Assembly: GCA_963720755.1 (NCBI GenBank)
Contig: CAVRGP010000011.1
Location: 288,001 to 352,000, forward strand
From: an uncultured Chloroflexia bacterium
GTDB lineage: Bacteria; Chloroflexota; Limnocylindria; Limnocylindrales; CSP1-4
DNA: 64,000 nt
Direction of reading: 5' to 3'
Positions 48,068-58,512 of this stretch are shown piece after piece. A program made the position numbers and the translations under genes. Position 1 is the first letter of the stretch. Every line of letters begins with the position of its first letter. The notes under the pieces were generated by a model. That model saw only the letters and a program-made list of their open reading frames with translations, had not been told where the DNA came from and made no database searches.

Positions 48068-48997
48068 ATGACCGACTACGACCAACTCGCCCTCCTCAAC
48101 GAACTCGAGCCGGAGGCGGGACGACTGTACGACCGCCATGCCTCGGTCGCGCAGGAGTGGTTCCCCCACGACTTCATCCCGTACCGAGTGGGGCGCGACT
48201 TCGACAAGGACCCGTGGACACCGGATCAACCGCGGCTCACCGGGGTCGCCCAGACGGCCTTCGAGATCGGTCTCCTGACCGAAGACAACCTGCCCAGCTA
48301 TCACCGCCTCATCTACGGCATGTTCGGCGCCGGTGACGGAGCATGGATCAACTGGGTGGGTCGCTGGACGGCCGAAGAGGGCCGCCACGCGATCGTCCTC
48401 CGCGACTACCTGACCGTCACCCGGAACATCGACCCGGTCCTGCTCGAGCGTGGTCGGATGACCCAGCTCCAGCAGGGCTACGACCGCGACTCCCCGGACA
48501 CGCTCAGGGGTCTGGCATACGTCACGTTCCAGGAGCTGGCGACGCGGATCGCGCACCGGAATACGGGGCGCTACTCGAACGATCCGGTCGCCGACAAGAT
48601 CATGGTCAGGATCGCCGCTGACGAGAATCTGCACATGGTCTTCTACCGCGACATCCTGGCCGCGGCGCTGGTCCTGGAGCCATCGGCGGCCGTGTGCGCG
48701 ATCGTCGATGAGGTCCTCGCCTTCAAGATGCCGGGCGCTGCCATCCCGGGCTTCGTCCGCAAGGCGGCCCAGATCGCCAAGGCAGGCATCTACGACATCC
48801 GCGTTCATCGCGACGAGGTGCTGCTTCCGGTCCTCCGACACTGGCGGATCTTCGAGCTCTCCAACCTGGATGCGCGGGCGGAAGCGGCCCGGGCACGACT
48901 GGCAGACCACCTCGCCGCGCTGGAGGAGGCGGCCAAGCGGTTCGAGGAGCGGATCGCCGATTCGAACGTGCCCCGGATCTCCATCGCGGGCGGCTGA
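48068..48997 (+). CDS. Acyl-ACP desaturase (ferritin-like di-iron, DesA1-like)
   Basis: LLTEDNLPSYH, WTAEEGRH, FQELAT, DENLH. Confidence 0.93.
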   Translation: MTDYDQLALLNELEPEAGRLYDRHASVAQEWFPHDFIPYRVGRDFDKDPWTPDQPRLTGVAQTAFEIGLLTEDNLPSYHRLIYGMFGAGDGAWINWVGRWTAEEGRHAIVLRDYLTVTRNIDPVLLERGRMTQLQQGYDRDSPDTLRGLAYVTFQELATRIAHRNTGRYSNDPVADKIMVRIAADENLHMVFYRDILAAALVLEPSAAVCAIVDEVLAFKMPGAAIPGFVRKAAQIAKAGIYDIRVHRDEVLLPVLRHWRIFELSNLDARAEAARARLADHLAALEEAAKRFEERIADSNVPRISIAGG

Positions 48998-56503: not shown

Positions 56504-57394
56504 ATGGCCGGATCGACGCCGACGGGCATCCTGTTGTTCGTTCACGGGGCGAACGAGACATCCGAGGGACTCATGGCGAACCTGACCCGCATCGAGGACC
56601 AGGTTCGGTCGCGAGGCTGGGACGTGGCCGTCGTTGCGCCGGAGTGGCGGCGTCACTCGGGATTGCGTCTCGGAGACTGGCGTCGCGCCATCCATCGGCG
56701 CGGCCGACCGTCGCCGATGCCGGTGCCGGTCATCCGCGCCGGGCTCCGCCGGGACACGGTCATGAAGATCGTGACCAACTACTTCGAGGATCGGCGCGAA
56801 GCCCTGTTCGACATCGTGGGGCCACAACTCCTGGCCGACGTGATCGGGTACCACGCCCACCGAGCGTCGATCCAGCTCGTCCTCAAGGAAGCGATGTTGC
56901 AGGCCGCCGCTGCGGCGCAGGGCCGCACGGTGCTGCCGGTCGCGGTAAGCCTTGGCGGCGTCGCTCTGGTCGATCTCATCGCGTCGTGGCCCGACGCGCC
57001 GATCGACGCGTGTGTCACGATCGGCTCGCAGGCCCCACTGCTGTACACCTTCGACGCGATCCCGTCGATGCCGTACGACGAAGCTGACCCACCATTCCTT
57101 CCGGTCCCCTGGCTGAACATCTACGACAGCCGCGATTTCCTGTCGTTCCTGGCCGAGCCGTTGTTCCGTCGATCAGACGGACTGGCGAGCGTGGTCGACC
57201 TGCGCGTTCGGTCGGGCAAGGATTTCCCCCGATCGCACGGCGCCTACTGGGAACTCCCGTCGGTCTGGGACGCCATCGCGACCGCGTTCAGCTGGCGACG
57301 CGTCGAACCGCTCACCGTTCGCGAAGCGCGCCGACTTGGTTTCGAAGCGCGCAAGGCACCGACCCCAGCCGGCGGATCGCCCCCGACGACATGA
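56504..57394 (+). CDS. Alpha/beta-hydrolase-fold protein
   Basis: FVHG, AVSLGG elbow, VTIGSQ, NIYDSRD, SHGAYW. Confidence 0.7.
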   Translation: MAGSTPTGILLFVHGANETSEGLMANLTRIEDQVRSRGWDVAVVAPEWRRHSGLRLGDWRRAIHRRGRPSPMPVPVIRAGLRRDTVMKIVTNYFEDRREALFDIVGPQLLADVIGYHAHRASIQLVLKEAMLQAAAAAQGRTVLPVAVSLGGVALVDLIASWPDAPIDACVTIGSQAPLLYTFDAIPSMPYDEADPPFLPVPWLNIYDSRDFLSFLAEPLFRRSDGLASVVDLRVRSGKDFPRSHGAYWELPSVWDAIATAFSWRRVEPLTVREARRLGFEARKAPTPAGGSPPTT

Positions 57395-57398
57395 AGAT

Positions 57399-57424
57399 GG
57401 CCGCCGAGCGCTGGCTCGGCGGCC
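57399..57424. terminator. Hairpin between convergent genes
   Basis: Perfect 11-bp stem GGCCGCCGAGC-gctg-GCTCGGCGGCC. Confidence 0.65.
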
Positions 57425-57431
57425 TGGGACC

Positions 57432-57539
57432 TCAGGGATGTGCCGCCGCGGCTGCCGAGAGCAGCACCGCCACAACGACCCCAAGGGTCAAGATCGCGTG
57501 CAGGAACAGCCGCGCACGCGGGAATCGTTGGACCTCCAA
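57432..57539 (-). CDS. 35-aa hydrophobic microprotein downstream of the c-di-GMP-I riboswitch
   Basis: AGGAGG-6 nt-TTG; MEVQRFPRARLFLHAILTLGVVVAVLLSAAAAAHP*; terminator-like hairpin 7 bp after the stop. Confidence 0.7.
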   Translation of the reverse strand: MEVQRFPRARLFLHAILTLGVVVAVLLSAAAAAHP

Positions 57540-57552
57540 GGTCCACCTCCTG

Positions 57553-57626
57553 TTCGGCAGCCCGGCTACCTGCGTGAGGCCCGTGGCTTTGCGTCCCCGC
57601 CTCGCGACGGGTTTGCCATTGTCGAT
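57553..57626 (-). promoter_or_regulatory. c-di-GMP-I (GEMM-I) riboswitch
   Basis: Minus strand reads GGCAAACCCGUC-GCGA-GGCGGGGACGCAAAGCCACGGGCCU-cacgc-AGGUAGCCGGGCUGCCGA, matching the GEMM consensus (GGCAAACC..GNRA..GGGACGCAAAGCC..CCGA). Confidence 0.9.
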
Positions 57627-57792
57627 CGATCCCCACCGGGGTCGATGGTGACCGACCGCACCAATGTAGCGGCGGCACGCTCGACGCGCGAGAGGCCTAG
57701 TCGGCTGGCGAATGCCCGTACCATCGTCGTGCGGATCGGAGCGTTGGGTGGTCGGGCTGGCGCGATCGATCGATCCGGGCGACCATGGTTCC

Positions 57793-58512
57793 ATGATTCG
57801 CGCGTCGCGTTCCCAGCCCATCGCCCGGTTCGGCCTTGTCGTCGTCCTGGTCGGGATGATGATGGCGGGCTCGGCGACACTGCCCGCCGGGTCGGTCGCC
57901 GCCTCGACGTGGACCGGCGGTATCGATCTGTATCGGTCCGGCGTGTTCACGACCCAGAAGACCTGGCGCTGGTGCACGGCCGCGGACGTCCAGATCATCC
58001 GCAATATCGTCGACCATAAGACGAACCATTCACGAACAGCGCAGCAGCGCTACTTCGACTACATGCGAGCCCACAATCGGTATGCGATCCCGGTCTCGGA
58101 CGGCGTTGATCCGGCTGGCTGGACGGCTGGTTTGCGTCGCTACGTCGACGACCGATACCGGCTCCGCGCCGATACCAGTTTCAAGGCGGCCATCCGCTCC
58201 GCCGTGAAGAACCTCCGCCGGACCAACCTGCCGATCGCGGTCACGGTTGCCCACGGGAACCACGCCTGGGTCCTGACCGGCTTCACGGCCACGGCCGATC
58301 CAGCCAGGACCGACGCGTTCAAGGTCACCAGCGTCCGCGTCGTCGGTCCGTTATGGGGCCTGCAGAGCCGCACCTATGGGTACGACATGCGACCCGACAC
58401 GAGATTGACCAGGCACCAGTTCAAGTCGTTCTTCACCCCCTGGCACTACGCGCCCGTGACCATGGCCTGGGAGCATCGGTGGGTGTCGGTCCAGCCGATC
58501 GCGGGGACCTGA
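57793..58512 (+). CDS. Secreted papain-like (C39-like) cysteine peptidase
   Basis: Signal peptide; TQKTWRWCTAA (Q-x5-C); GNHAWVLTGF. Confidence 0.65.
   Translation: MIRASRSQPIARFGLVVVLVGMMMAGSATLPAGSVAASTWTGGIDLYRSGVFTTQKTWRWCTAADVQIIRNIVDHKTNHSRTAQQRYFDYMRAHNRYAIPVSDGVDPAGWTAGLRRYVDDRYRLRADTSFKAAIRSAVKNLRRTNLPIAVTVAHGNHAWVLTGFTATADPARTDAFKVTSVRVVGPLWGLQSRTYGYDMRPDTRLTRHQFKSFFTPWHYAPVTMAWEHRWVSVQPIAGT

Follow-up and report, generated by a model that had tools for sequence, protein, structure and literature searches.

Within a 64,000-nt stretch of DNA from an uncultured Chloroflexia bacterium of the Limnocylindrales, an order of Chloroflexota (contig CAVRGP010000011.1 of assembly GCA_963720755.1, positions 288,001 to 352,000; hereafter the window), the minus strand carries a self-contained unit of ~230-300 nt. 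We read it as an ordinary class-I cyclic di-GMP (c-di-GMP) riboswitch in front of a gene for a 35-codon, single-pass membrane microprotein, with control proposed to act on translation, and estimate the probability of this reading at about 70%. It is carried by membership of the aptamer in a known family, by conservation of the Shine-Dalgarno (SD) sequence, open reading frame (ORF) and hairpin, by coding-type constraints, by covarying RNA helices and by the presence of c-di-GMP enzymes in the genome.

The unit begins with a GEMM-I (c-di-GMP-I) aptamer (57552..57626 in window coordinates, on the minus strand like every other element of the unit), located by Rfam cmscan and made up of P1, P2 with a GCGA tetraloop, and P3. 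The SD sequence AGGAGG (57546..57551) lies 3 nt after P1 of the aptamer; a further 6 nt separate it from the start codon, which sits in the loop of a hairpin, UGGACC-UUGGA-GGUCCA (57529..57545), seen in an alignment of 45 copies. The ORF (57432..57539) runs from a TTG start at 57539 to a TGA stop at 57434-57432 and translates as MEVQRFPRARLFLHAILTLGVVVAVLLSAAAAAHP; the gap between aptamer and ORF is 12 nt, and covariation reveals a further hairpin over codons 7-15 (57495..57520). A perfect 11-bp GC hairpin, GGCCGCCGAGC-CAGC-GCTCGGCGGCC (57399..57424), follows 7 nt after the stop codon, giving 228 nt from aptamer start to hairpin end. A preliminary description of this DNA had claimed the aptamer, the AGGAGG, the TTG-started ORF and the perfect 11-bp hairpin, leaving the strand unstated; every element was found, on the minus strand. 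The description was also right that the list of ORFs overlooks this one: the frame appears there only as the tail of a 190-amino acid (aa) ORF (57432..58004) that reads through the aptamer.

Aptamer class and distribution of the unit

A cmscan of the whole window returned a single riboswitch, which matches RF03167 (c-di-GMP-I-GGC) with 76.7 bits (E 1.9e-16; gathering score 59). A search of the window's own genome identified a weaker match to another model of that clan, RF01051 (c-di-GMP-I; 70.8 bits, gathering score 35); this match spans model positions 1-87, so that the score exceeds the curated cut-off across the whole model, as membership of RF01051 demands. The same genome holds one further GEMM-I copy, on another contig.

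Two papers on the Vibrio cholerae aptamer Vc2 name G20, A47 and C92 as ligand contacts, with G20 forming a Hoogsteen pair with one ligand guanine and C92 a Watson-Crick pair with the other (PMC4744006, PMC5888326). In the cmscan alignment, the window has G (57617), A (57590) and C (57557) at model positions 10, 37 and 75; that these correspond to G20, A47 and C92 is our reading of the junction positions from the structure line of the model. The G, which the preliminary description had correctly placed immediately before GCAAACC, is the unpaired base ahead of the G-C pair that opens P2; the A is the first base of the P2-P3 junction, and the C is the junction base that leads into the 3ʹ strand of P1. 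Among the 45 copies, G10 and A37 are invariant and C70 is present in at least 90% (by eye, locus L044 has T there). Judged by these positions, the window aptamer is a genuine class-I c-di-GMP aptamer with the ordinary c-di-GMP triad, and would be expected to bind c-di-GMP. The genome has ten matches to the GGDEF domain, seven of them with E below 1e-30, and hence encodes c-di-GMP enzymes.

Does the aptamer belong to one of the variant classes? The 'GGC' of RF03167 is said, after work by Weinberg et al. of 2017, to name the three contact nucleotides, with G at the middle ('A47') position. RF03167 is the best-scoring Rfam model for the window, but its consensus at position 37 is G, whereas the window and all 45 copies have A; by that definition the aptamer is not a GGC variant. 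Since its triad is G/A/C, the 'GGC' label misleads and should not be taken here to mean an altered ligand. If the reported definition holds, the higher RF03167 score probably reflects lineage-specific similarity. A change of G20 to A presumably marks the GEMM-Ib variants that sense 3ʹ,3ʹ-cyclic GMP-AMP (3ʹ,3ʹ-cGAMP); an invariant G occupies this position in the window and the copies, which places the aptamer outside that class. The existence of such variants is described in PMC7266159. With the canonical RF01051 members Vc2 and Vc1 of V. cholerae, the window aptamer shares the full-model match, the GNRA loop of P2 and the G/A/C contact triad. Unlike them, it has a short P3 containing the invariant GGGCCUC, in which CCUC is able to pair with the SD sequence, and the gene that it precedes encodes a microprotein.

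We scanned one genome for each of 185,579 species with the 42-nt aptamer core as query, and found 65 loci. At 47 of these, the core is followed by GGAGG, a start codon, an ORF of 34 or 35 codons and a GC hairpin (all 47 were selected by a script that required GGAGG). At three more, the sequence ends inside the 35-codon ORF, one locus is of a decayed type, and 14 precede other genes (ten in Rubrobacter/Rubrobacteraceae, four elsewhere). About fifty species carry the unit, mostly Limnocylindria-type Chloroflexota known from metagenome-assembled genomes from soil; one carrier is labelled Saccharimonadales, probably through a binning error. Among 61 related genomes, RF01051 matches occur in 31 of 36 from the same genus and in none of 24 from a sister family (genomes of ~1.1 Mb), and the total for the genus, own genome counted, is 75. 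Thirteen loci can be aligned past the aptamer by BLAST of a 500-nt region: twelve carry the 35-codon ORF, as does L100 in addition, and the thirteenth, L029, has kept the aptamer and lost the SD sequence and ORF. The 47 loci of the core scan overlap the 13 loci of the genus, as identical peptides show (e.g., L011 = L059), and cannot count as independent of them. Each genome has one copy of the unit.

The ten loci from Rubrobacter/Rubrobacteraceae (Actinomycetota; L038, L042, L049, L050, L062, L078, L083, L088, L092 and L098) have an identical 42-nt core and precede other genes, several with signal peptides. Such identity across phyla may reflect either an unusually conserved aptamer half or exchange between phyla.

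The 35-codon reading frame and its product

The arguments for coding that appear strongest to us are the start, the stop and the pattern of indels, together with the SD sequence. In the alignment of 45 distinct units there is no gap in the 105 coding columns, whereas the spacer before them and the region after them are rich in indels. Over the 47 loci, the start column holds GTG (26), ATG (13) or TTG (8), the stop column holds TGA (43), TAA (2) or TAG (2), and the ORF has 35 codons in 45 cases and 34 in two. GGAGG is near-invariant 6-8 nt ahead of the start column; one of the 45 rows, L075, has a 3-column gap in the motif. Summed over the 45 copies, the annotated frame contains no stops and the other five frames contain 45, 3, 5, 12 and 36; hence, the annotated frame alone is open in all copies. 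In the half of the ORF that encodes the hydrophobic helix, the ratio of nonsynonymous to synonymous polymorphism (pN/pS) is 0.63, compared with 1.02 and 1.50 in the other sense frames. G+C content by codon position is 0.80/0.45/0.85, and six real genes of the window have third-position values of 0.82-0.88, a signature that alone cannot exclude an in-register antisense frame; in the antisense frame that shares the wobble position, the 45 copies together contain 12 stops. Together, these features suggest that the ORF is a conserved stand-alone cistron that is probably translated.

A profile of the 45 peptides was searched against 1.84 billion cluster representatives (E up to 0.001) and matched 32 proteins, of which 20 have 35 aa, five have 31-34 aa, two have 25 aa and five are longer (77-235 aa). 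All 32 share one C-terminus. In the five longer proteins the match is at the C-terminal end, and the part upstream is the aptamer translated in frame; these are read-through calls. The stand-alone microprotein of the preliminary description holds up, with an ORF of 34 or 35 codons at 47 of 47 loci and no long secreted orthologue among the 32 matches.

The consensus of the 45 copies is MEVQxxPRxRxxxHAxLTLGxVxAVLLAAAAxxHx. Conserved residues are V3, Q4, P7, R8 (40/45), R10 (40/45), A15, L19, G20 (38/45), V22, V25, L26, L27 and A29 (45/45), and position 18 is T or N in 43 copies, so that the helix core contains a conserved [T/N]-L-G. An uncharged stretch of 19-26 residues (median 21) has a median best 19-residue Kyte-Doolittle mean of 2.17 and is preceded by a median net charge of +2. 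By the ordinary rules, an uncharged stretch of this length with a basic N-terminal side spans the membrane as a helix, leaving the N-terminus inside and a short tail outside. The 35-mer is accordingly predicted to be a membrane anchor, a single-pass helix with its basic N-terminus in the cytoplasm and ~4 residues outside. Searches of Pfam with the window peptide gave only a sub-threshold match to KASH (E 0.19). NCBIfam gave no family for the window peptide and three chance-level families, each matched by one of the 45 members, and a protein-atlas search with the peptide gave no usable match. Complex prediction with four copies of the peptide scored 0.12 and 0.11, which is uninformative either way.

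RNA structure, proposed switch and competing explanations

We counted base pairs on the 45-sequence alignment and compared the counts with those from 500 shuffles and from slid controls. On each measure the whole structure scores above every one of the shuffles, and it also exceeds every slid control, with 96.4% of cells paired as opposed to 29-44%. The five pairs of the start-codon hairpin are kept in 45 of 45 copies (100% paired), and two of them show compensatory changes (AU 30, GU 12, GC 3; GC 44, AU 1). Compensatory pairs number eight of ten in the intra-ORF hairpin, where 91.6% of cells are paired, and 10 of 13 aligned pairs in the post-stop hairpin. The aptamer is near-invariant across the copies, partly because the scan required its core. 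No conserved RNA structure is predicted for the helix half of the ORF. Plain minimum free energy folds of 256 nt and 141 nt gave z of -2.7 and -0.33, and are uninformative in RNA this rich in G+C.

How might the aptamer act on the ORF? In the ligand-free consensus from RNAalifold, a hairpin GGUAGC/GCUGCC replaces P3 and P1, and the CCUC of the aptamer pairs with the GAGG of the SD sequence; in the folded aptamer, both C's of the CCUC are paired in P3. No terminator-like hairpin was found between aptamer and ORF, either in the sequence or by a consensus scan, which makes translational control more likely than premature termination. We propose that binding of c-di-GMP to the aptamer would alter access to the SD sequence and start codon. 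In the unfolded aptamer, the CCUC of P3 would pair with the SD sequence; ligand would lock the CCUC into P3 and so free the SD sequence. On this model we lean slightly towards an ON rather than an OFF switch. The microprotein would then exert its effect in the membrane, where its most likely binding partner is another membrane protein or a further copy of itself. The second-messenger-controlled membrane micropeptide suggested in the preliminary description is the best reading; ligand binding by the aptamer, translation of the ORF and its control by the switch are deduced from sequence.

The preliminary description also saw a complete transcription unit of ~230 bp. The elements and their 228-nt span are there, but a simple consensus scan of 57300-57850 found neither a sigma-70-like promoter nor a U-tailed terminator, so we infer the ends of the unit. 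Three conserved upstream blocks within 57627..57722, namely GGTACGG (57722-57716), TAGGCCTCT (57699-57691) and TAnnnT (57668-57663), and a leader hairpin seen in folds (~57657-57627) travel with the unit in an alignment of 47 upstream regions; the promoter probably lies among these blocks. The tail after the post-stop hairpin is not U-rich, with a mean of 2.7 T in 10 nt at the 44 of 47 loci where the end of the stem was located. This hairpin also lies 4 nt after the stop codon of a convergent plus-strand gene, and probably terminates or stabilises the transcript while doubling as the end of the convergent gene.

Sequencing runs were sampled for words of the sequence. At least half of the sampled words are held by only two DNA runs from soil, both of one study, a third run of which holds 0.21; all RNA runs hold ~6%, which is roughly the conserved aptamer. 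Contigs of four RNA libraries, each from a different study, were also matched, at 80% likeness. Many cover the aptamer alone and come from assorted organisms. Three contigs (158, 173 and 251 nt) cover 57530-57641 with seven differences each and continue as a relative's ORF, and a fourth, of 441 nt, covers 57484-57620. By arithmetic, the 251-nt contig begins ~38 nt before the aptamer and continues for ~116 nt beyond the start of the ORF, approximately to the post-stop hairpin. These contigs are a weak hint of transcription.

Several observations weigh against the riboswitch-controlled microprotein. Enforcing the aptamer does not change SD accessibility relative to free folding, in 13 or in 45 sequences. 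In partition-function folds of 45 unconstrained leaders, the SD sequence pairs with the aptamer at 40% and with downstream sequence at 45%, leaving 15% free; with the aptamer enforced, the values are 0%, 81% and 19%. The downstream partner is often CUCC in codons 6-7 (9 of 13 loci of the genus, by eye). Since the SD sequence is mostly paired in both states (0.15 and 0.19 unpaired), the thermodynamics reveal no switch. For the whole ORF, pN/pS reaches only 0.76; the antisense frame that shares the wobble position has 0.71 overall and, in the helix half, 0.57. The covarying hairpin overlaps the N-terminal half of the ORF, which has a pN/pS of 0.92, compared with 0.80 in another frame; this half is without frame-specific constraint, which suggests that part of the conservation is at the RNA level. 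Purifying selection, by these values, is moderate. The RNA-library contigs could be contaminating DNA, and two extend upstream of one candidate -10 element. Finally, the unit is patchy: it is present in 14 of the 37 genus genomes examined, and in a family-wide sample of 201 genomes there are strong peptide matches in only four (three of the window genus, including the own genome, and one of another genus). Seven further genomes of that sample have weak peptide matches (E 0.001-0.01), mostly inside larger open frames, which we take as chance.

Part of this pattern is what would be expected of a riboswitch-controlled, structured non-coding RNA, in which high G+C content and constraints on RNA structure leave a frame open as a by-product, either untranslated or translated to no effect. 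Covariation supports three helices beyond the aptamer, including one within the ORF, pN/pS is modest, and open frames are cheap at 68% G+C (sense frame 2 has only three stops in 45 copies, and antisense frame 0 only five). Such an RNA has no need, however, of a near-invariant GGAGG 6-8 nt upstream of a column in which every copy has a start codon, of one of three kinds, nor of a stop column in which all three stop codons are used. The 105 columns between them are free of indels, and the helix half, for which no conserved RNA structure is predicted, keeps a hydrophobic, frame-specific pattern. We consider a non-coding RNA unlikely, if not negligibly so. The switch might instead serve mainly to regulate its neighbours, by antisense read-through into a hydrolase-like gene or by read-through to an MFS transporter gene, with the ORF as a leader; this we regard as quite unlikely. 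The convergent hydrolase-like gene directly follows the hairpin at 23 of 47 loci, and the MFS gene lies co-directionally downstream at 21 (directly after the hairpin in L066/L020). A decayed unit (L029/L052) retains its aptamer ~200 nt upstream of the MFS gene in the absence of the ORF, and one survey has c-di-GMP riboswitches as the family most enriched in antisense orientation (PMC9943018). Against such a role, about 21 of the 47 loci have neither gene nearby, the hydrolase-like gene is upstream (divergent) at two, a covarying GC hairpin of 11-13 bp separates the ORF from whatever follows, and the ORF is itself conserved as coding.

The remaining explanations concern the peptide. The preliminary description saw it as signal-peptide-like, with an AxA motif, and as a possible pheromone- or pilin-like precursor. 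A cleavable Sec signal peptide that releases 3-5 C-terminal residues, or a precursor processed like a prepilin, would account for the basic n-region and for the Ala-rich stretch that leads into a short tail of some conservation, [S/N/D]-[F/V/A]-[H/Q]-[R/G]. In a cleavable signal peptide the h-region is short, positions -3 and -1 hold small residues, and a mature domain follows the site of cleavage. Here, by contrast, the uncharged stretch of 19-26 residues has transmembrane length, the supposed -1 residue of AxA (column 31) is A in 32 copies and M (10), F (2) or L (1) in the other 13, and only ~4 residues follow. No processing, modification or export gene is conserved alongside at the loci examined, and a prepilin motif of the G-F/M-T-L-x-E type is not seen by eye in the alignment. 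We therefore abandon the Sec-type signal peptide, find no support for the pheromone or pilin precursor, and hold cleavage or processing of any of these kinds to be very unlikely. The ORF could also be the decayed 5ʹ remnant of a gene for a longer secreted protein, given that other GEMM-I copies of the genus precede large, N-terminally anchored secreted proteins. However, it has 34 or 35 codons at every one of the 47 loci, with its stop in one column at which all 32 profile matches also end, and no relative continues past the helix; the truncated-remnant scenario fails, and we consider it extremely unlikely.

Related systems and genomic setting

The 75 RF01051 matches of the genus fall into several groups. 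Fourteen precede the 35-mer, one more is decayed, and one is at a contig end. Twenty-five precede a second family, of single-helix peptides of 28-37 aa with the consensus MKANLARFTxALSLLAxMALTLGAGxKWx, and 34 precede larger, mostly N-terminally anchored secreted proteins. Thus, 39 of 75 precede ORFs of 37 aa or fewer, and more than half of the GEMM-I riboswitches of the genus appear to drive microproteins. The two peptide families are not homologous by hhalign (probability 1%).

What is known of comparable genes? A recent paper (Nat Commun 2026, PMC13724677) describes the CD1980.2 family of Clostridioides difficile, membrane-associated proteins of 58 aa encoded behind the class-I riboswitches Cdi1_6 and Cdi1_8-11. 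There the five paralogues are reported to be 76-88% identical, to be repressed by c-di-GMP through premature termination, to promote sporulation and to have no homologues outside C. difficile (PMC13724677). Both systems place a class-I c-di-GMP riboswitch directly ahead of a very small, hydrophobic, unannotated gene (membrane association being a prediction in our case), and in both, several riboswitches of one lineage are devoted to such genes. The window protein differs in having 35 aa, essentially one helix, rather than 58, and in occurring as one copy per genome rather than as 5-8 paralogues. Its SD sequence abuts the aptamer, which suggests translational control in place of premature termination (OFF). 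The host is of a Chloroflexota lineage, so a role in sporulation need not apply. There is no 58-aa or Clostridioides-type relative among the 32 profile matches, a search that included no pairwise comparison with the CD1980.2 sequence. The 35-mer is not a member of the CD1980.2 family: protein, likely expression platform, copy number and phylum all differ.

Small single-helix membrane proteins include the regulators AcrZ, MgtS and KdpF and the type I toxins TisB, Fst and Ldr. The 35-mer resembles these in size (~30-50 aa), in its one helix with a charged end, in a strongly structured mRNA with an occluded SD sequence and, in some loci, in an adjoining transporter gene, but no sequence similarity to them was found with Pfam or NCBIfam. 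Type I toxins are small hydrophobic peptides, toxic when overexpressed, whose mRNA an antisense or overlapping RNA represses. Size, hydrophobicity and structured mRNA are the only traits of such toxins seen in the unit. We found no published description of the unit in the literature searched.

It is possible, though rather unlikely, that micro membrane proteins (two unrelated families of no more than 37 aa, behind 39 of 75 GEMM-I riboswitches in the genus) are the main riboswitch-mediated output of c-di-GMP in these soil Chloroflexota and arose independently of those in C. difficile, and that the 35-mer is a membrane-active effector, e.g., a toxin-like depolariser, a dormancy trigger or a modulator of the neighbouring MFS transporter. 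If so, a c-di-GMP riboswitch leading to a single-helix microprotein would be a general effector design. The sole published parallel that we found dates from October 2026 and concerns one pathogen, C. difficile; unrelated microprotein families behind one riboswitch class in an uncultured soil phylum suggest a recurrent design. Microproteins of such size escape annotation, and here the riboswitch upstream names the signal, c-di-GMP, for the probable use of a 35-residue gene. The 230-nt unit and the 35-mer peptide are also compact, easily synthesised test cases for the action of c-di-GMP on membranes.

Loci of the MKANLARFT family (L028, L030, L033 and various of L105-L135) have their own aptamer subtype and a spacer of ~40 nt, and are sometimes in tandem, as in L030 with two copies ~540 nt apart; none is in the own genome. 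At L105, L106, L110, L118, L122 and L132, the end of the ORF for this peptide is overlapped by another small ORF, of 32-34 aa, which starts ~80 nt after the start of the first and ends in ...AGHRW[S/G] or ...SGHRWG, echoing ...GAGxKW. Another aptamer subtype has a coupled pair of A-to-C changes, GCAAACC to GCACACC and GGGACGC to GGGCCGC (L023-L027, L031, L032, L034 and various of L116-L142), and precedes large secreted proteins starting MFW[DN]G... or MRNI[AR][IV]AD...; the coupling may point to a tertiary contact. The other GEMM-I riboswitch of the own genome (L002, 1501-3073, contig 3) is of the subtype GCACACC...GGGCCGC and lies upstream of a gene whose product is a secreted protein with an N-terminal anchor and a GH26 domain; the 5ʹ part of this gene is split over three frames. 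In L032 the orthologue is one intact ORF of 493 aa. The split gene could be either a pseudogene or the product of assembly frameshifts.

In the window, the unit is flanked by a divergent plus-strand gene for a secreted protein without a Pfam family (57793-58512) and by the convergent plus-strand gene for the hydrolase-like protein (56360/56500-57394), which has no Pfam or NCBIfam family. The MFS transporter gene (56529-55279) lies downstream on the unit's own strand. Other neighbours in the genus are LamB/YcsF and FtsZ genes, both convergent, and a UDG-family gene. At roughly half of the loci the genes on either side are different ones, and hence the unit stands alone: it is self-contained, patchily distributed, and found in a neighbourhood that recurs without being obligatory. 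The hydrolase-like protein is its most frequent neighbour (25/47 loci), usually convergent and sharing the hairpin, and a functional link between the two is possible. In the decayed unit L029 (= L052 type), the aptamer scores 59 bits, the 3ʹ strand of P1, the SD sequence and the ORF have been replaced, traces of the hairpin persist, and the MFS gene starts ~200 nt downstream of the retained aptamer.

Elsewhere in the window, Rfam reports a match to the small RNA family ASdes ('TB sRNA') with 50.2 bits at 48377-48444 on the minus strand, which is misleading as a pointer to an actinobacterial origin. This match is antisense within an acyl-ACP-type fatty-acid desaturase gene (48068-48997, plus strand; PF03405, E 2.4e-59), and most likely reflects conserved desaturase coding sequence rather than a small RNA.

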